Shown one piece after another: positions 1,620 to 21,481 of a stretch of DNA of 21,481 bases. Position 1 is the first letter of the stretch; every line of letters starts with the position of its first letter. This DNA comes from Armatimonadota bacterium (GTDB lineage: Bacteria; Vulcanimicrobiota; JACPDS01; JBDRKI01), in NCBI GenBank assembly GCA_043814095.1, contig JBDRKI010000047.1, positions 1 to 21,481 of the forward strand, read 5' to 3'. The translations under genes and the position numbers were made by a program. Under the pieces are notes generated by a model. That model was given only the letters and a program-made list of their open reading frames with translations. It searched no databases and was not told where the DNA came from.

Positions 1620-2438
1620 ATGAAAGATACAAATAAAAGCAAAAAAATAATAGTTATAGGAACAGGGGCGCTAGGGAAAGCTATCGCAAATAAGCTGAAA
1701 AAGACAGGCTTTAACCTTATAGGGATAGCAAGCAGAACGGCTAAAGCCGCGGACCGCCGCTCATACCCGCTCGGCAAGATGCCGGATGCGGATATATATA
1801 TCCTCGCGGTACCCGATAAGGCAATAAGCGGCACCGTAAAAAAAATAGATAAAAAAATTAGCCGTAAAACTATTTTAATTCATTTAAGCGGCACTTTTTC
1901 TTCAGACATCCTGAAAACAAAAAATAATAACCTCTGCGCGTCATGCCACCCTGTGGGCTCGTTTAAAAATCTTGAAAAATCCATTAAACTCCTGGAAAAA
2001 GCGCACTGGACTCTTGAAGGAGACAAAAAAGCAGTTGATTTTATGGCTTCTTTTATAAAAAAACTGAGCGGAAAATATTACATAATAGAAAAGAAAGATA
2101 AGCCCCTTTATCATGCGGCATGCACACTTGCTTCAAGCGGATTATTAAGCCTGATATATGCATCGCGGGATATGTTAAAAGAAGTAAAATTCGCGTCTAA
2201 GCCCGCGCTCAATGCCTGCCCCTCCGAGATTCTCTGGCCGCTGGTGCTGAGTTCTCTGGAAAACTTAAAGCAGTCGGGCTTCCCCGAAGGGCTTACAGGC
2301 CCCTTTGTCCGGAACGATACCGGTACTATAAAGCTTCATAAAACCGCATTAAAAACTCATAATAAGGAAATTTTAAATATTTATAAAACCTTATTCAAGT
2401 TTACAAAGAACAGGAGTAAAAAACATGAACGGAATTAA
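1620..2438 (+). CDS. panG: Rossmann-like/DUF2520 oxidoreductase, probable PanG-type ketopantoate reductase
   Basis: IGTGALG dinucleotide-binding motif, LAVPD, HLSG, HP, YHAA, LTGP..R.D motifs of the DUF2520 family. First gene of a pan operon that lacks panE. Confidence 0.8.
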   Translation: MKDTNKSKKIIVIGTGALGKAIANKLKKTGFNLIGIASRTAKAADRRSYPLGKMPDADIYILAVPDKAISGTVKKIDKKISRKTILIHLSGTFSSDILKTKNNNLCASCHPVGSFKNLEKSIKLLEKAHWTLEGDKKAVDFMASFIKKLSGKYYIIEKKDKPLYHAACTLASSGLLSLIYASRDMLKEVKFASKPALNACPSEILWPLVLSSLENLKQSGFPEGLTGPFVRNDTGTIKLHKTALKTHNKEILNIYKTLFKFTKNRSKKHERN

Positions 2439-3237
2439 TAAAATTTACGCCCCCTATATCACCGCGAAAAAGCTTACAGGACAGAAAATAACAATGCTTA
2501 CCGCTTATGATTACTCCGCGGCAAAGATACTGGATAATGCCGGTATTGACGCTATACTTGTGGGCGATTCACTGGGCATGGCTGTTTACGGAGACGAAAA
2601 CACGCTCTCTGTTTCCATGGAAGATATTATAAGGCATACAAAAGCGGTATCACGCGGGGCAAAAAGAAGCTTGATAGTTTCCGATATGCCTTTTATGAGC
2701 TACCAGGTTTCCCCCGAAGAAGCCGCTTACAACGCGGCCCGCCTTATAAAAGAAGGCGGGGCAGAGGCGGTAAAACTGGAAGGCGGGAGAGAATTCTCCC
2801 AGGCCGTAAGCAGGATTACAAAATGCCAGATACCCGTTATGGGCCATCTGGGACTTACTCCCCAGTCCGTATATAAGTTCGGCGGGTACAAAATGCAGGG
2901 AAAAAGCAAAGACGACGCAGACAGGATAACCGAAGACGCGCTTCTTCTTGAAACTTTAGGCGTATTCGCTATTGTTCTTGAGTGCATACCGGCCGAACTG
3001 GCAAGAAAGATAACGGAAAAATTAACCATCCCCGCGATAGGAATAGGATCGGGGCCTTACTGCGACGGGCAGGTTCAGGTTATAAACGATATCCTTGGAT
3101 TAACGGAGAATCTACCGCGCCACGGGAAAAGATACCTTGACCTTAATTATGAAATAACCAAAGCGGTTAATGATTATAAAAATGATGTATTGAGTGACCG
3201 GCTGTTTAAAAAAGAAGGTGTAAGTGTTAATAGTTAA
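2425..3237 (+). CDS. panB: 3-methyl-2-oxobutanoate hydroxymethyltransferase
   Basis: MLTAYD, LVGDSLGM, KLEGG, GHLGLTPQ, IGIGSG..CDGQV motifs. Confidence 0.97.
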   Translation: MNGINKIYAPYITAKKLTGQKITMLTAYDYSAAKILDNAGIDAILVGDSLGMAVYGDENTLSVSMEDIIRHTKAVSRGAKRSLIVSDMPFMSYQVSPEEAAYNAARLIKEGGAEAVKLEGGREFSQAVSRITKCQIPVMGHLGLTPQSVYKFGGYKMQGKSKDDADRITEDALLLETLGVFAIVLECIPAELARKITEKLTIPAIGIGSGPYCDGQVQVINDILGLTENLPRHGKRYLDLNYEITKAVNDYKNDVLSDRLFKKEGVSVNS

Positions 3238-4091
3238 AACAACCTCAAAATTAAAAAAAGAAATAAGGAAAATTAAAAGGCGCGGGGAATCAATCGGCTT
3301 TGTGCCTACAATGGGATACCTGCATAAAGCACACCTATCCCTTGTGCGAAAATCCAAAAAAGAGAATGATAAAACAGTTATATCTATTTTCGTAAACCCG
3401 CTTCAGTTCGCGCCGGGTGAAGACTTTGAAAAATATCCCAGAGACGGAAAAAAAGATATAACACTCTTGCAAAAAGAAAATGTAGACCTTCTTTTTGCTC
3501 CCGATGCGAAAGAATTATACCCTGAAGATTTTAAAACAACGGTTTCTGTTAAAGACATCCGGGACTCCCTGTGCGGGGCCTCGCGGAACGGCCATTTTGA
3601 CGGGGTATGCACGGTTGTTAATAAACTATTTAACCTTGTTGAACCGGATAATGCCTATTTCGGACTGAAAGACGCACAGCAATTAATAATAATCAAAAAA
3701 ATGGTTAAAGACCTTAATATGAACGTGAGAATAAAAGAACTTCCGACCATAAGAGAAAAGGATGGACTGGCGCTTTCTTCAAGAAATACATGCCTTACAA
3801 AAGAAGAAAGATCCATTGCTCCCGTATTATATAAAAGCCTTAAAAAGGCAAGGAAAATGACAAAAAAAAACAAAAGATCCTGAAAAGATAATAAATGCCG
3901 TAAAGAAACAGATAGTTAATGAAACGGAAAACAAAGCTGTTATTGATTATGTAGACATAAGAGATTTTAAGACTCTTGAGAAAACAAACCGTATAAACGG
4001 AGACATACTGATAGCTCTTGCCGTTAAAATCGGAAAAACAAGACTAATAGATAACATCCCGGTTAAAAAAACGGAGGTTTCCAATGCATAG
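3224..4091 (+). pseudogene. panC: Pantoate--beta-alanine ligase, frameshifted (+1) at A9 run 3862-3870
   Basis: Frame 0 (3224-3883) has VPTMGYLH, SIFVNPLQF, R.GHF.GV, FG.KD.QQ and REKDGLALSSRN. The +1 frame (3870-4091) supplies the missing C-terminus ...IDYVDIRD...[16 protein letters not shown]. Removing one A gives a 288-aa protein. Could be a sequencing error. Confidence 0.93.
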
Positions 4092-4458
4092 AACCATGTG
4101 TAAAAGCAAAATACACAGGGCAGTTGTTACCGATGCAAACCTTAATTATATAGGAAGCATTACAATAGACCGTGCCCTTATGCAGAAAGCCGATATTACG
4201 GAATACGAACATGTCCATGTGTTAAATTTAGACAACGGCTCAAGGATTGAGACTTACGCGATAGAAGGCGAAGAGAATTCCGGCACAATATGCCTTAACG
4301 GGGCGGCGGCTCATTATTTTAAAAGAGGCGATAAAATCATAATCATTTCATACTCATCATATAATGAAGAAGAATTAAAAGCATTTAAGCCTAAAATTGT
4401 TTTTGTTGATGAGAATAACCGCGCGGCGGATAAAAAAGAGGTTCTTGAATTATGTTAA
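4084..4458 (+). CDS. panD: Aspartate 1-decarboxylase
   Basis: KSKIHRA, Y.G-SITID autocleavage site, ETY, CLNGAAA. Confidence 0.97.
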
Positions 4459-5654
4459 AAGGAAAAAAAATACTTTTAGGCGTAACCGGCGGGATTGCCG
4501 CATATAAATCCGCATATCTTGTAAGTAGCCTTATAAAACAGGGTAATGAAGTTAAAGTTGTTATGACGGACTCAGCGCAAAAATTCGTAGCGCCTTTAAC
4601 TTTCAGCACATTATCACGCGGTAAAGTTTATACAGATATGTTCCGCAAAGAAAATGAATATGATATAGAACATATCAATCTCGGCAAGTGGGCTGATTTT
4701 ATCTTAATAGCTCCGGCGACATATAATACAATAGGGAAAATCTCTTCAGGTATTGCCGATGACCTTTTATCATCAATAGTTGCCGCCTATACAGGAAAAA
4801 TATTTTTATGCCCCGCAATGAATGACGGTATGTATAATAACCCTGTTTTAAAAGAAAATATTGAAAAACTTGAAAAACTGGGTTATGTGTTTATGGGTCC
4901 GGAGACGGGAAGACTCGCCTGCGGGGATGACGCGGAAGGAAGAATGACAGAGCCGGAAGATATAATAAGCTTTCTTGATAAGCTTTATTCCGGGAGAATG
5001 ACAGAGCTTAAGCTTAAAGGCAAAAAAATCCTTATCACGGCAGGTCCCACAAGAGAAGCCATAGATCCGGTAAGATTTATATCCAATTATTCATCGGGAA
5101 AGATGGGTTATGCCCTGGCAGAGGCATCAGAAGAGGCGGGCGCGCAAGTCACCCTTATATCCGGACCTACATCCTTAAAAACACCTAAAAACACAAGATT
5201 AATAAATGTTGAAAGCGCTGACCAGATGTTAAAATCCGTCAACAAATATTTCCCCGGCACAGATATATTTATAAGCTGTGCCGCTGTATGCGACTACAAA
5301 CCGGAAAAAAAACAATCTCAAAAAATTAAAAAGAACAGGGACTGCATCACACTGGATTTAACAAAAAATACTGATATTTTAAAAGAGGCCTCCAAAAAGA
5401 AAAACGGCGCGTTAATTGCGGGCTTCGCGGCAGAGAGCGAAAACATTATAAAAAATGCCAAACAAAAATTAAAAGAAAAAAATCTAGACATTATAATCGC
5501 GAATGATATCTCCCGGAAGAATTCCGGATTTGAAAGTGATTTTAATAAAATTACCGTAATAACCAAAAACGGGAAGGTGAAAAAGTTCAATAAGATGCTA
5601 AAAAAAGACTGCGCGAAAATAATTATGGAGGAGATTTATGCTTTTAGTAATTGA
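4452..5654 (+). CDS. coaBC: Bifunctional phosphopantothenoylcysteine decarboxylase/phosphopantothenate--cysteine ligase
   Basis: [52 protein letters not shown]. Confidence 0.97.
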
Positions 5655-6423
5655 TATAGGGAACACAAACATAGTCCTTGGAATATTTGAAGGCGATACA
5701 TTAAAGCACACATGGAGAATACACAGCAAAGAAAACATGACAGAAGATGAGTACTATGTCCTCATAGACGGACTGTTTAAAGAAAAAAATATCTCAAAAC
5801 AGAATATAAAAGATATCGTTATGGCATCTGTTGTGCCTCCTCTTGAATATGTATTTAAAAAACTGGCACAGAAATATTTTAACATCCAGCCACTTATGCT
5901 CGGGGCGGGAGTAAAAACAGGGATAGACATAAAAACCGATAACCCCAGGGAAGTAGGAGCGGACCTTATAGCGGGCGCGGCGGCGGCGCATAATAAATAC
6001 AAGAAAGCGGCAATAATCATAGATTTCGGGACAGCAACAACCCTTACGGCCATCTCATCAAAGGGAGAATTTTTAGGAACATCTTTCGCGCCAGGGGTAC
6101 TGATATCGCTTGAAGCGCTCTATAGAAGAGCATCCAAACTGCCAAAAGTAGAGCTTACTCCCCCGAAAAGAGCCGTCGGGAAAAACACAACCGAGAGCAT
6201 GTTAAGCGGCATCTTTTACGGAACAATCGGTCAGATCGAAAACATAGTAAAAAACATGAAAAAAGAATTAAACGACAGAGAAACTATTGTCATAGGAACA
6301 GGCGGGGTAATAAAACTTTTTGAGGGCAAGATGGATTTTATTGACCATATAGAACACGAACTTGTTCTTGAAGGATTAAACCTCATTTACCGTAAAAACA
6401 CAATTCTTATTTCTGCCCGGTAA
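5638..6423 (+). CDS. coaX: Type III pantothenate kinase
   Basis: DIGNTN, SVVP, EVGAD, DFGTATT, GTGG, LVLEGL. Confidence 0.95.
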   Translation: MLLVIDIGNTNIVLGIFEGDTLKHTWRIHSKENMTEDEYYVLIDGLFKEKNISKQNIKDIVMASVVPPLEYVFKKLAQKYFNIQPLMLGAGVKTGIDIKTDNPREVGADLIAGAAAAHNKYKKAAIIIDFGTATTLTAISSKGEFLGTSFAPGVLISLEALYRRASKLPKVELTPPKRAVGKNTTESMLSGIFYGTIGQIENIVKNMKKELNDRETIVIGTGGVIKLFEGKMDFIDHIEHELVLEGLNLIYRKNTILISAR

Positions 6424-16892: not shown

Positions 16893-17621
16893 TTATTCAA
16901 AAGCTATAACACAGCCTGCTCTAACCTGATTTAAGTAGCTTGTTTCCGTTAAGCCGCATCCGTAAGAAGCATCAAAAATAATATTATCTGTAATTCTGTA
17001 CCTCATGCCCAGCTGGGAGATTACAGGACCTGCGTCGTTATTAGAAGACTCTCCGAAAACCTCTCCTACTAAACTCCATTTTCCGGCAAGAGCTCTATCA
17101 AACGAAACACCATATAATACAGAACACGGATCTGAGGTGGAATATCCTAAATTAAAATCAAATGCAGCACCGAAGAGCTCTTTTTCCCAGAAAAGGCGCG
17201 TACTGTTCTCAGGGATACCCATTTCTATGCTCTCAACACCGTCATTTAAATCAAATGAGGTTTTTATGCCGAAAGCAGGGCTATGCTCTGTTTCTTCAGA
17301 AAACCTGGATTTAAGAGAGATAACCGTATCTCCCAGCCCCATCCGTATATTGTCATCAAGAGGGCTTATAAACGCCTGGAGCTGGTCCACAATAATATCC
17401 AGATTATCAAAAACACCTATATTCAGAGTAAAGGGATGAAAAATCTCTGTAGAACCGTCCCTGTTATTTACCCACTGGTATCCCAGCTCAAGCTCGTAAT
17501 TGCCCTTCCCGACAGTGCCGGCATCTTCCGTAAGAAGGGGGGGGGCAGCCCATACGTATATAAAACTGCTGAAAAAGAAAATTATTATTAATAAAATAGT
17601 TAATTTAAATTTATTCTCCAC
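16893..17621 (-). CDS. Putative outer-membrane beta-barrel transporter (MetA-pathway/phenol-degradation-like family)
   Basis: Signal peptide, then PPLLTEDAGTVGKG.YELE; GLGD..ISLK.RF motif; alternating amphipathic strands; aromatic residue near the C-terminus (AFE). Confidence 0.72.
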   Translation of the reverse strand: MENKFKLTILLIIIFFFSSFIYVWAAPPLLTEDAGTVGKGNYELELGYQWVNNRDGSTEIFHPFTLNIGVFDNLDIIVDQLQAFISPLDDNIRMGLGDTVISLKSRFSEETEHSPAFGIKTSFDLNDGVESIEMGIPENSTRLFWEKELFGAAFDFNLGYSTSDPCSVLYGVSFDRALAGKWSLVGEVFGESSNNDAGPVISQLGMRYRITDNIIFDASYGCGLTETSYLNQVRAGCVIAFE

Positions 17622-17718: not shown

Positions 17719-17761
17719 AAAATAAAAAGGGGCTGTATCTTTTAGAAAACATAGCCCCTTT
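17719..17761 (-). terminator. Intrinsic terminator downstream of lat
   Basis: Minus strand AAAGGGGCTAT...ACAGCCCCTTTTTATTTT; inverted repeat 17726-17736/17751-17761, 19 nt after the lat stop. Confidence 0.8.
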
Positions 17762-17780: not shown

Positions 17781-19136
17781 CTATATTTCCTTAAGCGTTT
17801 TCTCTAATACCTGCAGGGCCTCATTTATAATATTCTCATCCACGTCAAGATGGGGCCTGAACCTTATTCCCGTATGCCCGCTTGCAAGTCCTATAAAATT
17901 ATTATTTCTGAGCTTTGTAAGATATTTATCGCGCATCTGGGTAGTCGGCAGGTCAAATGCCGTAAAGAGGCCTTTCCCCCGCACATTTGATACTTTGTCA
18001 GGATATTTTTTCTGCAGGTCATAGAGGCCTTTGATAAACTTCTCACCCATTACGCGGGCGTTCTTTACCAGATTATCCTCCTGGATTATCTCAAACATCT
18101 TTGTTGCTCTTATCATGTCAACAAGATTCCCGCCCCATGAAGAATTAAGTCTGGATTTTAATTCAAAGCAGTTATCTTTAACTTCGCTTACCCTGTCAGA
18201 TACGCAGATGCCGCAGACCTGGGTTTTCTTGCCGAAGCATAAAATATCCGGCAGAACCCCGTAATATTCATGCGCCCACATCTTGCCCGTTAAGCCGATA
18301 CCTGTCTGGACTTCGTCAAATACAAGGAGAAGTTCATGTTCATCGGCAAGCCTTCTTAATTCCTTAAAGAATTCGGGCCTGAAGTGATTATCCCCGCCTT
18401 CACCCTGTATGGGTTCTATTACAATAGCACAGCACGAGTGAGGATACATTTTAAGGTAGTTTTCTATCATTAAAATAGAGTCTTTTTCTTCTTTCTCAAC
18501 ACGCTTTAACTCATCTTCGGTAACCGGGAAGCGGAGTTTGGGATTAGGGAACCTGGGCCAGTCAAACTTGGCAAAATACATGTATTTTCTGGGATCAGCC
18601 GTGTTTGTCATTGACATTGTGTAACCGGTTCTACCGTGGAATGATTCTTTGAAATGTATTACCCTGGTACCGTATTTTTCTTTCTCCTCATCGCCTTTGC
18701 CGACAATGCCGCGTTCTAGGTTCTTTCTTACCTTCCAGTCAAAAGCAACTTTCAGGGCATTCTCAACCGCCAGGCCGCCGCCGTCTATAAGGAAAAGATG
18801 GGGCAGTTCTTCGGGCGCGCATATTTTATAAAAAGTCTGCACGAATTCCGCCATCTCTATTGTATAAAAATCGGAGTTTGACGGCTTTATCTCCGCTGCC
18901 TTAAAAAGTTTTTTTGTAAATTCCGGAGTTTTTAATTTGGGGTGATTATACCCTATCGGGTAAGTCGCGAAAAACGAGAAGAAATCCAGAAGTTTTCTGT
19001 TATTCAAAGAATCATAAATATATGATCCTTCGGACCTTTCAAGATCCACGACAATGTCCGTGTACCCGTCAGCCAGCATATGCTTGCTTATTACCTTTAC
19101 CACATCTTTCGGCTGAATTTTTTCCTTGGTCAACAT
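17781..19136 (-). CDS. lat: L-lysine 6-transaminase (class III PLP aminotransferase)
   Basis: KPSNSD, AVENALKVAFDWK, FHGRTGYT.S.TNT, EPIQGEGGDNHF, FDEVQTG, FGKK.QVCG, SRLNSSWGGNL.DM.R motifs typical of Lat. Confidence 0.92.
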   Translation of the reverse strand: MLTKEKIQPKDVVKVISKHMLADGYTDIVVDLERSEGSYIYDSLNNRKLLDFFSFFATYPIGYNHPKLKTPEFTKKLFKAAEIKPSNSDFYTIEMAEFVQTFYKICAPEELPHLFLIDGGGLAVENALKVAFDWKVRKNLERGIVGKGDEEKEKYGTRVIHFKESFHGRTGYTMSMTNTADPRKYMYFAKFDWPRFPNPKLRFPVTEDELKRVEKEEKDSILMIENYLKMYPHSCCAIVIEPIQGEGGDNHFRPEFFKELRRLADEHELLLVFDEVQTGIGLTGKMWAHEYYGVLPDILCFGKKTQVCGICVSDRVSEVKDNCFELKSRLNSSWGGNLVDMIRATKMFEIIQEDNLVKNARVMGEKFIKGLYDLQKKYPDKVSNVRGKGLFTAFDLPTTQMRDKYLTKLRNNNFIGLASGHTGIRFRPHLDVDENIINEALQVLEKTLKEI

Positions 19137-19150
19137 GATACCTCCCTTAT

Positions 19151-20281
19151 TTATACTTTTACCTTTAATTTGCCGGCAATCTCGTTTGCCACTTCTAAAG
19201 TGGTATTTTTGCCGCCCATATCATATGTTTTCACTTTGCCTTCTTTTATCACTTCCTTAACCGCATTCTCCAGGGCCACGGCCTTATCCTTTTCTCCGAG
19301 ATAATCAAGCATCATTTTCGCTGCTAAAATAGTGGCTATGGGATTAACTTTATACTGGCCTTCATATTTAGGGGCCGACCCGTGAGTGGGTTCAAAAACA
19401 GCTGTTTTCTCCCCTATATTACCTGAGCACCCGAAACCGAGCCCGCCTACCATCTGCGCGCAGAGGTCTGATATAATATCGCCGTAAAGGTTAGGGGCGA
19501 CAAGCACATCATAATTATGCGGGTTCTTTAAAAGCCACATGCACATAGCGTCTATATTGGCATTATCCATCTGTATGCCGGGATAATCTTTTGCTACTTC
19601 TTTCCCCGTTTCCAGGAATAAGCCGTCGGTAGCTCTCACAACATTGGCTTTATGGACTATTGTGACTTTTTTACGCCCGTGTTTTTTAGCGTATTCAAAC
19701 GCCGCCCTTATAATACGCTCACAGCCGCTTTTTGTGTTCACCTTACAGGAGATTGCGTATTCCTCCCCTGGAAGAGAACTGAATTTTGAAAATGGTTTTG
19801 AAATTTTTGTTAAAGTATCCGAAAGCTCCTTGGGTACAGAGGAAAACTCCACTCCCGAATAAAGATCTTCGGTATTCTCCCTGAAAACAACAATATCTAT
19901 GTCTTCTTTGTAATTAAGTGTATTGCCCGGATATGATTTGCAGGGCCTTAAGCATATATAAAGATCAAAAAGCTGTCTCATCCTTACTATAGGCGAGCGG
20001 TAGCTTAGCCCCTTCCCTTTTAATTCATCAATAAGTTCCGCTTCGGCCTCTTTTACAGGCTTTGAAGTTATCGCGCCGAACATAGCCGCATCAACATTTT
20101 TAAGCATTTGGACGGTTCTTTCAGGAAATGCATCTGCTTCTTTCTGCCAGTATTCCCAGCCGATATCACCGTGAATATACTCGGCATCCAAACCAAGTCG
20201 ATCAAGGACAATCTTTGCCGCCTCCATAACTTCTTTTCCGACACCGTCGCCTGGAAGCCATCCGATTTTGTACTTTGCCAT
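19151..20281 (-). CDS. Isocitrate/isopropylmalate dehydrogenase-family protein, probable homoisocitrate dehydrogenase
   Basis: PGDGVG.EV, YRSPIVRMRQ.FDLY..LRP, RENTEDLY, HKANV, PNLYGDIISD, EPTHGSAPKY, NPIATI. Confidence 0.9.
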   Translation of the reverse strand: MAKYKIGWLPGDGVGKEVMEAAKIVLDRLGLDAEYIHGDIGWEYWQKEADAFPERTVQMLKNVDAAMFGAITSKPVKEAEAELIDELKGKGLSYRSPIVRMRQLFDLYICLRPCKSYPGNTLNYKEDIDIVVFRENTEDLYSGVEFSSVPKELSDTLTKISKPFSKFSSLPGEEYAISCKVNTKSGCERIIRAAFEYAKKHGRKKVTIVHKANVVRATDGLFLETGKEVAKDYPGIQMDNANIDAMCMWLLKNPHNYDVLVAPNLYGDIISDLCAQMVGGLGFGCSGNIGEKTAVFEPTHGSAPKYEGQYKVNPIATILAAKMMLDYLGEKDKAVALENAVKEVIKEGKVKTYDMGGKNTTLEVANEIAGKLKVKV

Positions 20282-20317
20282 ACCTTCCTCCTTATTTTCT
20301 TTAATTAGTTTTTTAAT

Positions 20318-20860
20318 TTATTTATAAAAATATTCCATTATTTCCGTATTCATAAAATCCAGTTTATTCACTATAACGGCTTCCGGCGTCCTTTTTATAA
20401 AATCTCCTTCTCCGGAATGCGCGCCTATTATATGAAGGACTTCATCGGGGATATTCTTGCCGTAAGCTATCCCCACACCGCTTAAAGGATGGCGCAGGTA
20501 TTTTCCGTTATCACTTAGAACAATCTCCCCGTCTTTTTTCGTATATTCCAGAAGTTTTCCCACATCATGCAGTAATCCCCCGCATATAAGATAATCAATA
20601 TCCAGGGCAATCTTACCTGCATAAATCTCTTTAAGCTTTACTCCCGTATCATAACCTGTCTGCGCGACAGCTCTTGTATGGTCAATAAGATTAACCGGAC
20701 AGTTTTTAATATGCAGTGTTGAGGGTATATCTTTTAAATCTTCTATCTCCCACTTCCCCTCGCGCATCGCGTCAATCCATACCTGAAGCGCGTTCTCGCG
20801 CAGTATATCATCTTTAATAAGAAGAAACTCCGGGATAATATCTGTAAGCTTGTCTCTCAT
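20318..20860 (-). CDS. HD-domain (HDIG-type) metal-dependent phosphohydrolase
   Basis: DHTRAV, LLHDVGK, LRHP..G, HIIGAHS, D. Confidence 0.88.
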   Translation of the reverse strand: MRDKLTDIIPEFLLIKDDILRENALQVWIDAMREGKWEIEDLKDIPSTLHIKNCPVNLIDHTRAVAQTGYDTGVKLKEIYAGKIALDIDYLICGGLLHDVGKLLEYTKKDGEIVLSDNGKYLRHPLSGVGIAYGKNIPDEVLHIIGAHSGEGDFIKRTPEAVIVNKLDFMNTEIMEYFYK

Positions 20861-20873
20861 AAAAACACCTGCA

Positions 20874-20910
20874 GTTTATCCGTCCCCGCGCAAAGCGGGG
20901 ATGGATAAAC
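20874..20910. repeat. 16-bp GC-rich inverted repeat (REP-like hairpin)
   Basis: GTTTATCCGTCCCCGC-GCAAA-GCGGGGATGGATAAAC between two co-oriented genes. Confidence 0.7.
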
Positions 20911-20919
20911 AAATATATT

Positions 20920-21417
20920 TTAACTGTTTGCGGCTTCCAGCACTTTTCTGCGGGCGTACGGGATAAGTCCGCCGGCATCAACAATGGCCTGGCGGGCCGG
21001 CGGAAGCGGTACCACCTTAAATGTTTTACCCTTTGTTTTATTTATAACTTCATCGGGCATTATATCAAGCTCATCGCCTTCGCTTGCTTCAATCTCCGGG
21101 CATATAACCGTATGCAGTCCGAGATTAATGGCATTCTGCAGGAATATCCTGGCAATTGATTTGGCAATAATTATGAAATCATACCCTTTTAAAGTTGATG
21201 CGGCCTGCTCGCGCGATGAACCGCACCCGAAATTATTACCGCCTATTATTACGCTTCCCTGCGAAACTTTACCTGATTTTAATTTATCGTTAAATTCTTT
21301 ATCATCCGCAAAAGCGTACTGCGGGGTCTCTGAAGGCAGAACGGTTGCCATAAACCTGCCGGGATAAATAATATCGGTTGATATATCATCACCTGTCTTA
21401 TACACTACTTTAGGCAT
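20920..21417 (-). CDS. Aconitase-family small (swivel) subunit: LeuD/HacB type, probable homoaconitase small subunit
   Basis: DDISTDIIYPGRF, NFGCGSSREQA, ARIFLQNAINLGL, GGLIPY. Confidence 0.9.
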   Translation of the reverse strand: MPKVVYKTGDDISTDIIYPGRFMATVLPSETPQYAFADDKEFNDKLKSGKVSQGSVIIGGNNFGCGSSREQAASTLKGYDFIIIAKSIARIFLQNAINLGLHTVICPEIEASEGDELDIMPDEVINKTKGKTFKVVPLPPARQAIVDAGGLIPYARRKVLEAANS

Positions 21418-21481
21418 GCGTTTTGCTCCTTTCTTTTGTGGGATCTGTAATCTTGCCGGTAATGGCGCTCACTGCCGCCAC
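21410..21481 (-). CDS. C-terminus of aconitase-family large subunit (LeuC/HacA type), partial
   Basis: Minus-strand reading VAAVSAITGKITDPTKERSKTHA*. A..SAITGKITDP is the typical LeuC/HacA C-terminus, and the stop overlaps the small-subunit start. Confidence 0.85.
   Translation of the reverse strand: MAAVSAITGKITDPTKERSKTHA

Follow-up and report, generated by a model that had tools for sequence, protein, structure and literature searches.

Why should a dehydratase and a dehydrogenase that resemble enzymes of leucine and homocitrate metabolism share a predicted operon with an L-lysine 6-transaminase (LAT)? The question is raised by contig JBDRKI010000047.1 (C47) of an Armatimonadota bacterium, all 21,481 bases of which were analyzed and are called the window here; the genome (G000) comprises 2.50 Mb in 129 contigs and is rated 98.97% complete. 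A preliminary description of the window had proposed either lysine catabolism through a reversed alpha-aminoadipate route, ending in 2-oxoglutarate plus acetate or acetyl-coenzyme A (acetyl-CoA), or a carrier-free lysine synthesis. Given the linkage of these genes to lysine genes and the reversible lyases found as their partners, we favor the first answer, and think the chances slightly better than even that they belong to a module that breaks down lysine by a reversed homocitrate route.

Gene identities and operon structure

Five minus-strand genes are packed at the end of the window, with the gaps of -8, 59, 36 and 14 nt that had been given for them and that the open reading frame (ORF) coordinates bear out. 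In the direction of transcription these are the end of an aconitase-family large subunit gene (LSU; 21410-21481, its final 23 codons, translated from an open frame that runs off the contig end, with the stop at 21410-21412), the LeuD/HacB-like small subunit of the dehydratase (SSU; 20920-21417, 165 amino acids, TIGR02087), an HD-domain metal-dependent hydrolase (20318-20860, 180 amino acids, PF01966), a beta-decarboxylating dehydrogenase (19151-20281, 376 amino acids, PF00180) and, as the final gene, LAT (17781-19136, 451 amino acids, TIGR03251). The single terminator described at 17719-17761 is also there on the minus strand: an intrinsic-terminator-like hairpin of -22.3 kcal/mol (z -3.9), equaled by 0 of 200 shuffled sequences, follows LAT and leads into a U run, and is absent from the list of a simple consensus terminator scan. 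A second hairpin, a 16-pair stem of -28.9 kcal/mol (z -5.1), lies at 20874-20910 in the 59-nt gap between the SSU and HD genes; it might serve for attenuation within the operon or for processing, or might be a scar left when the HD gene was inserted.

LAT scored 592.1 bits against TIGR03251 (LAT_fam), above the equivalog cut-off of 520.8. Its score against the Mycobacterium tuberculosis LAT structures (403 bits) is double that against gamma-aminobutyrate (GABA) aminotransferase (194 bits), and a GABA shunt, with LAT acting as GABA aminotransferase, was dropped on this account. The SSU passes the TIGR02087 model for the LeuD/DmdB subfamily (118.5 bits, cut-off 108.95) and is the only Aconitase_C gene of the genome. 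The motifs previously noted in it, SSREQA and TDxIYPG, were confirmed (as SSREQA and STDIIYPG); in alignments to solved structures, SSREQA also occurs in the homoaconitase small subunit of Methanocaldococcus jannaschii (2pkp), and SSREHA in an isopropylmalate/citramalate isomerase subunit (3vba). The SSU carries a loop of the form YPGR[FYH]MATVLP that was present in 29 of 35 SSU rows; of the six rows that lack it, one is a broken gene and the others come from HD-type clusters. The body of the LSU is missing from the assembly, with 0 matches to PF00330 across the 129 contigs.

The dehydrogenase (313.6 bits against PF00180, Iso_dh) is the single member of that family in the genome. It falls under every NCBIfam equivalog cut-off, whether for LeuB, isocitrate dehydrogenase (ICDH) or homoisocitrate dehydrogenase (HICDH), and its closest solved relatives are the Thermus homoisocitrate dehydrogenases (243 bits). 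The LeuB-type GGPKWD/E loop, reported as lacking, is indeed missing: a different, longer segment replaces the GGPKWE stretch of E. coli LeuB. The HD protein scored 42.8 bits against PF01966. A fold search with its AlphaFold 2 model (pLDDT 90.9) returned generic HD-fold matches only, a sequence search of the PDB gave no match, and the matches in the Atlas were unnamed HD clusters only. Homologues of 38-52% identity adjoin the dehydrogenase orthologue elsewhere, and the HD gene stands beside the dehydrogenase in the window and at L065, L067, L068, L121, L126, L155 and L157.

The window probably holds the downstream two-thirds of the operon. For the upstream part a CitDEF-like cleavage enzyme had been guessed; we found instead a petal-death-protein-like lyase, on what appears to be the neighboring contig. 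That contig, C91 (5,542 bases), opens with a lyase gene on the minus strand that runs from position 681 down to 1, where the contig cuts it off, and its product is 81.5% identical to the lyase of genome G003 over residues 1-227 of 311. Because the lyase gene points toward the cut LSU at the window end, the 23 codons of the LSU align to the C-termini of LSU orthologues from the widespread operon described below, and the order lyase-LSU-SSU is present in G003, L152 and L125, C91 is likely to join C47. The full operon would then read lyase-LSU-SSU-HD-dehydrogenase-LAT, with approximately 1.5 kb unassembled. An exact 42-base search of metagenome contigs returned no extension of C47. The closest solved relative of the lyase is the petal death protein (1zlp, 179 bits), which we take to be broadly specific for 2-alkylmalates. 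Both the C91 fragment (207.2 bits) and the full-length L152 orthologue (217.9 bits) miss the PrpB cut-off (TIGR02317, 354.4), and both keep the (K/R)CGH stretch, as PKRCGH, at the stretch that also carries it in 1zlp and 3eoo.

The module and lysine genes in other genomes

The dehydrogenase belongs to a widespread module. Neighbors were counted within 10 kb of the dehydrogenase in the best 80 loci (IDH loci), where the enzyme is 75-81% identical and which, by their record titles, come from many phyla, with uncultured Ignavibacteria, Acidobacteriota, Aminicenantes, Verrucomicrobiota and others among the carriers. An HMG-CoA-lyase-family gene (HMGL) was found at 50 of these loci, an LSU at 49, a family III CoA-transferase (CoAT) at 48 and an SSU at 43, the family names HMGL-like and CoAT being taken from locus L019. 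Against this five-gene set, IDH-HMGL-CoAT-LSU-SSU, the dehydrogenase, the SSU (66-69% identical to operon-type SSUs) and the end of the LSU are the only orthologous parts here: the assembly has no orthologue of the HMGL-like lyase, and its sole CoA-transferase match, on C23, is 39% identical. When the neighbors of LAT and of IDH were clustered, no additional conserved partner emerged, two apparent clusters being antisense ORFs over IDH and LSU.

Two other forms of the module differ in what stands in the place of the CoA pair. In the lyase form, seen at 4/80 IDH loci, this is one isocitrate-lyase-superfamily enzyme of 310 amino acids, 79-82% identical among L125, L131, L152, L159 and G003; across 31 lyase loci, LSU and SSU adjoin the lyase in 13 and the dehydrogenase is present in 11. 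In the form found in G034, there are succinyl/citryl-CoA-synthetase-like subunits, a citryl-CoA-lyase-like gene, an HD gene and two LSU/SSU pairs. The cluster concerned (L065, on G034:C52, 1293-12728) has eleven genes: Lys1-like, Lys9-like, two succinyl/citryl-CoA-synthetase-like subunits, citryl-CoA-lyase-like, HD, LSU, SSU, dehydrogenase, a second LSU and a second SSU. The same route seems to be present there in an ATP-dependent form. Three non-homologous, apparently interchangeable cleavage modules are found in the same operons, all of them reversible and capable of cleavage and none a thioester-hydrolyzing synthase. In fungi, two aconitase-family enzymes are reportedly needed for the isomerization of homocitrate (PMC3556520), which may be relevant to the presence of two LSU/SSU pairs in both G034 and G006.

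A more distant arrangement was noted in a member of the Planctomycetaceae (L199, 3013-10593). There, an aldehyde dehydrogenase (55% identical to the L019 type) and a class III aminotransferase (30% identical to LAT) precede a divergent dehydrogenase, LSU and SSU (49, 50 and 40% identity) and a lyase (80%). A related pathway that acts on a different omega-amino acid may be encoded here.

Several loci link the module to lysine genes. The preliminary description had put forward a neighborhood of LAT, the homoaconitase-like pair, the HICDH-like dehydrogenase and the HD protein. What recurs in other genomes is LAT beside the module, at 4 of 41 LAT loci: an aldehyde dehydrogenase-LAT pair adjoins IDH-HMGL-CoAT-LSU-SSU in L008 and L019, and CoAT-HMGL in L014 and L021. 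Viewed from the 80 IDH loci, LAT is present at 0 and the HD gene at 4. The G034 cluster begins with saccharopine genes, Lys1-like and Lys9-like, and such genes also follow the SSU in L162; in L152 the gene divergent from IDH-lyase-LSU-SSU encodes a piperideine-6-carboxylate dehydrogenase (763.6 bits, cut-off 730). Of the 41 LAT loci, 17 pair LAT with an aldehyde dehydrogenase of the NAD(P) type (nine of the L019 type, seven of the piperideine-6-carboxylate dehydrogenase type and one other).

The linkage extends to gene content. Among 41 relatives, all 13 genomes with an orthologue of the dehydrogenase also have LAT or a Lys9-like gene (LAT in this genome, a Lys9-like saccharopine dehydrogenase in 12), as against 1 of the 28 without it, 27 of which have neither; counted by family, the figures are 8/8 and 1/9. 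We note that "orthologue" here means at least 54% identity, a line set after the identity gap was seen, and that kin genomes are not independent samples, so both sets of counts are to be read with these limits. A second set comprised 30 genomes, 29 chosen for the orthologue and one (G052) from its LAT locus. Here LAT exceeded the cut-off in 15 and was broken in one (G043), a Lys9-like gene (at least 250 bits) was present in 12, no genome had both, and two (G044 and G049) had neither; LAT was over the cut-off in 0 of 14 control genomes. Four genomes (G000, G034, G051 and G052) were known beforehand to hold lysine genes. The broken LAT (G043:C5:550549-551827) appears as two matches, of 430.7 and 209.4 bits, with one TGA inside; either the gene is broken or the assembly is wrong at this point.

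Proposed route, direction and alternatives

In the route that we favor, LAT would transfer the epsilon-amino group of lysine to 2-oxoglutarate, with allysine and glutamate as products. Allysine would then pass by way of 2-aminoadipate to 2-oxoadipate through the action of an aldehyde dehydrogenase and an aminotransferase, neither of which was found in this genome. The dehydrogenase, proposed to be a homoisocitrate dehydrogenase run as a 2-oxoadipate reductive carboxylase, would combine 2-oxoadipate and CO2 with NAD(P)H, probably NADPH, to form homoisocitrate; LSU/SSU would convert homoisocitrate to homocitrate; and the lyase would split homocitrate into 2-oxoglutarate and acetate, with acetyl-CoA in place of acetate as the final product of the CoA forms. 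Because 2-oxoglutarate is the amino acceptor of the first steps, the net result would be a redox-balanced conversion of lysine carbon to glutamate and acetate. The pairing of LAT with NAD(P)-type aldehyde dehydrogenases would set the direction as lysine to aminoadipate, since by established chemistry enzymes of this type are unable to reduce free acids. Cleavage is likewise the expected preference of a lyase that works without CoA. We hold more tentatively, at somewhat less than an even chance, a fuller version of this proposal, namely that one operon encodes a CoA-independent, redox-balanced conversion of lysine to glutamate and acetate whose key steps fall to a reductive carboxylase of 2-oxoadipate and to a "homocitrate lyase" that would be a new member of the isocitrate lyase superfamily, with the HD protein as dedicated accessory, and that it is one of at least three interchangeable versions of a lysine catabolic pathway found across many bacterial phyla.

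A series of observations weighs against the reversed homocitrate route, beyond the limits of the counts given above. The proposed substrates and direction rest on genomic context, and the join of C47 and C91 was deduced from the way these genes are ordered elsewhere rather than from sequencing reads. Physical linkage to lysine genes is the exception, saccharopine genes being present at 1/80 and LAT at none of the IDH loci. The dehydrogenase misses all the homoisocitrate models (366.3 bits for a cut-off of 540 with AksF2_Meth, 328.9 for 500 with AksF_Meth and 190.9 for 680 with iso_homocit_dh), and in the alignment to 3asj the position of Arg85 of Thermus homoisocitrate dehydrogenase, a residue that we assume to act in substrate recognition, is Val, with an Arg one residue on. 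The SSU misses every equivalog cut-off, those for LeuD and HacB included (115.8 bits for a cut-off of 230 with the homoaconitase model HacB2_Meth), and its loop reads FMAT where 2pkp has YLRT, so that Ala replaces the Arg (Arg26) of an Arg-Thr pair presumed to serve in the substrate loop of the methanogen homoaconitase small subunit. Orthologues of both types of LAT-partner aldehyde dehydrogenase are absent from this genome (best identities 32% and 26%), in which no aminoadipate aminotransferase was identified either. Finally, the sole HMGL-/LeuA-family gene of the genome (C36:37355-38953, or L075:7356-8954, minus strand) is citramalate-synthase-like (690 bits against TIGR00977, cut-off 450) and has no obvious sink for its product, given that IlvC and IlvD were not found.

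This last gene brings in an alternative, in which the module would act on another pair of 2-oxoacids, either from 2-oxobutyrate to pyruvate via citramalate or from 2-oxoisocaproate to 2-oxoisovalerate via isopropylmalate, with LAT as a neighbor of convenience. The genome has IlvE-like and IlvA-like genes beside the citramalate-synthase-like one, the SSU is closer to 3vba (111 bits) than to the solved homoaconitase (103 bits), and the kinship of the lyase with the petal death protein, with its presumed breadth for 2-alkylmalates, would fit as well. So would a correlate that is otherwise unexplained: the IlvD family (PF00920) is missing from 13/13 orthologue genomes tested (G000, G003, G005-G007, G013, G019, G034, G046, G053, G056, G057 and G059), as against 14/14 controls with a match. 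The tested carriers thus resemble auxotrophs for branched-chain amino acids. On the other side, an invariant Arg in the dehydrogenase pocket suggests a substrate with an acidic, not an alkyl, side chain; the lysine-gene linkage is specific, LAT being replaced non-orthologously by saccharopine genes; and the equivalog cut-offs for LeuB (TIGR00169, 209.1 bits for 353.2) and LeuD are missed. We consider this alternative quite unlikely.

Leucine/isoleucine biosynthesis was ruled out, IlvC and IlvD being missing: queries with the E. coli proteins gave no match in the genome. The earlier view that these are not leucine genes is supported by this result, by the missed LeuB cut-off and by the position of the sole LeuA-family gene. 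A leucine role had been thought to turn on leuA lying directly upstream and on the absence of any other leuBCD; the window does hold the only PF00180 and Aconitase_C genes of the genome, and the LeuA-family gene lies on a different contig, C36.

That these genes have no second copy, and that no citrate synthase family gene was found in the genome, points to a different alternative. Here the module would work at the level of citrate, as a two-subunit aconitase, an isocitrate dehydrogenase and an enzyme that makes or splits citrate, and would form a branch of the tricarboxylic acid (TCA) or reductive TCA cycle linking 2-oxoglutarate with oxaloacetate and acetate or acetyl-CoA; LAT would be tied to it through 2-oxoglutarate and glutamate only. 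Four other genomes (G003, G006, G013 and G034) agree with this in having a single PF00180 gene, no PF00330 match in a frame of more than 525 amino acids and no monomeric isocitrate dehydrogenase. Their citrate synthase family is limited to short citryl-CoA-lyase-like members in G006, G013 and G034, with none in G003, and in G034 the neighbors score over the cut-offs of citryl-CoA lyase subfamily models and show similarity to subunits of succinyl/citryl-CoA synthetase.

The pocket of the dehydrogenase speaks on both sides of this question. All 70 orthologues keep the catalytic positions of E. coli ICDH (R119, R129, R153, Y160, K230, D283, D307 and D311), as well as Ser113; the RS..V..RQ frame is also kept. 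Ser113 and Asn115, which we take to be the ligands of the gamma-carboxylate of isocitrate, are not kept as a pair, however: the position of Asn115 is Ile in 70/70, that of Val116 is Val and that of Ala117 is Arg (Lys in one). Because Ile replaces Asn115 and Val replaces the Thermus Arg85, the pocket is neither a classical ICDH nor a classical HICDH pocket. The positions of Lys344, Tyr345 and Tyr391 are mostly retained, which, given the role of these residues in E. coli, hints at the use of NADP(H).

Genome content also argues against the citrate-level alternative. Three genomes (G053, G056 and G057) have a full-length citrate synthase, an aconitase frame of 758-771 amino acids and a monomeric isocitrate dehydrogenase, lack IlvD, and still retain the orthologue as their only PF00180 gene, together with operon-type LSU/SSU and the HMGL-like lyase. 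Because they keep the module beside a full TCA set and without IlvD, it is likely to have a third function; housekeeping aconitase plus ICDH, formerly our leading idea, was lowered for this reason. In addition, 11 of the 12 operon-bearing genomes searched have 2-5 PF00180 genes, and the citrate-level alternative leaves unexplained the tracking of the module with lysine genes (LAT, saccharopine genes and piperideine-6-carboxylate dehydrogenase; 13/13 against 1/28). We regard it as unlikely.

The second proposal of the preliminary description, carrier-free lysine synthesis, is a matter of direction. In this case 2-oxoglutarate and an acetyl unit would give homocitrate, 2-oxoadipate and aminoadipate, from which lysine would be made by LAT or saccharopine enzymes in reverse. 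The fungal Lys9 and Lys1 homologues do work biosynthetically, 4/13 orthologue genomes have no LysA over the cut-off, and the citramalate-synthase-like gene might in principle serve as a homocitrate synthase. The diaminopimelate (DAP) pathway is present here, however: lysA, dapA, dapB and a dapD-type gene pass their cut-offs, as do two aspartate kinases, so that the operon is not required for lysine synthesis. LysA also exceeds the cut-off in 9/13 orthologue genomes, compared with 16/28 without the orthologue, and the module does not replace the DAP pathway. The aldehyde dehydrogenases that partner LAT are, moreover, of the NAD(P) type, and a CoA-free condensation of acetate with a 2-oxoacid would be unfavorable. 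Synthesis is accordingly disfavored and, in our judgment, very improbable.

Elsewhere in the window are pantothenate/CoA genes, two-component systems and a gene for a pilus ATPase. On the plus strand at 1620-6423 are genes for a DUF2520 Rossmann protein, PanB, PanC, a short ORF, CoaBC and a type III pantothenate kinase; PanC, with 219 amino acids, covers profile positions 2-207 of 268 only. Directly downstream of the operon terminator, an ORF of 242 amino acids with a hydrophobic N-terminus (16893-17621, minus strand) has no Pfam or NCBIfam match.

Significance and comparison with known systems

Lysine-derived 2-oxoadipate is known to be converted to glutaryl-CoA and, in pseudomonads, to pass through an oxygen-dependent step. 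If the proposal is true, the reversed homocitrate route would be a third, oxygen-independent fate of 2-oxoadipate. It would regenerate the 2-oxoglutarate acceptor, balance the NAD(P)H of the aldehyde dehydrogenase and yield acetate or acetyl-CoA, and would provide the first function for a homocitrate-cleaving lyase. Thousands of annotations as "LeuB/LeuC/LeuD", "HMG-CoA lyase" and "methylisocitrate lyase" would then be reassigned. In the literature searched there was no paper on homocitryl-CoA, homocitrate lyase or such a lysine route.

The closest precedent in chemistry is the upper alpha-aminoadipate pathway of Thermus, archaea and fungi, which uses the same isomerase and dehydrogenase families and the same intermediates as are proposed here. 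The module differs from it in its proposed, reversed direction, in having a lyase in place of homocitrate synthase in the operon, in the lack of LysW carrier genes or a fungal aminoadipate reductase, and in departing from the equivalog models, the Thermus Arg85 and the methanogen Arg26. At the lysine end, the route through LAT and piperideine-6-carboxylate dehydrogenase is known in Flavobacterium, Streptomyces and Mycobacterium, where it continues via glutaryl-CoA. LAT of the window passes the LAT equivalog model, and its homologues share the pairing with an aldehyde dehydrogenase at 17/41 loci; here, in contrast, LAT is in a predicted operon with a dehydratase, a dehydrogenase and a lyase, and not with its aldehyde dehydrogenase.

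For the succession of reductive carboxylation, isomerization and cleavage, the citrate side of the reductive TCA cycle, as in Hydrogenobacter, offers a parallel that is one carbon shorter, and G034 has homologues of its citryl-CoA enzymes. Unlike that cycle, the module would act on 2-oxoadipate rather than 2-oxoglutarate and would serve catabolism rather than CO2 fixation, and it coexists with a TCA set in G053, G056 and G057. The lyase resembles the petal death protein and the methylisocitrate and 2,3-dimethylmalate lyases, with 1zlp as the closest solved relative and the (K/R)CGH stretch kept, but falls below the PrpB cut-off, and its gene occurs together with those of a LeuCD-type dehydratase and an IDH-type dehydrogenase. 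A similar pairing, without lysine genes, is that of DmdAB with dimethylmalate lyase in nicotinate fermentation.

The nearest relative in gene content is the five-gene IDH-HMGL-CoAT-LSU-SSU operon, to which the dehydrogenase (75-81%), the SSU (66-69%) and the LSU C-terminus are orthologous. Here, by comparison, the lyase replaces HMGL and CoAT, an HD gene interrupts the set and LAT is joined to it as the last gene. What the window would contribute is thus a lyase-based form of the module, with LAT joined directly to it in one predicted operon.

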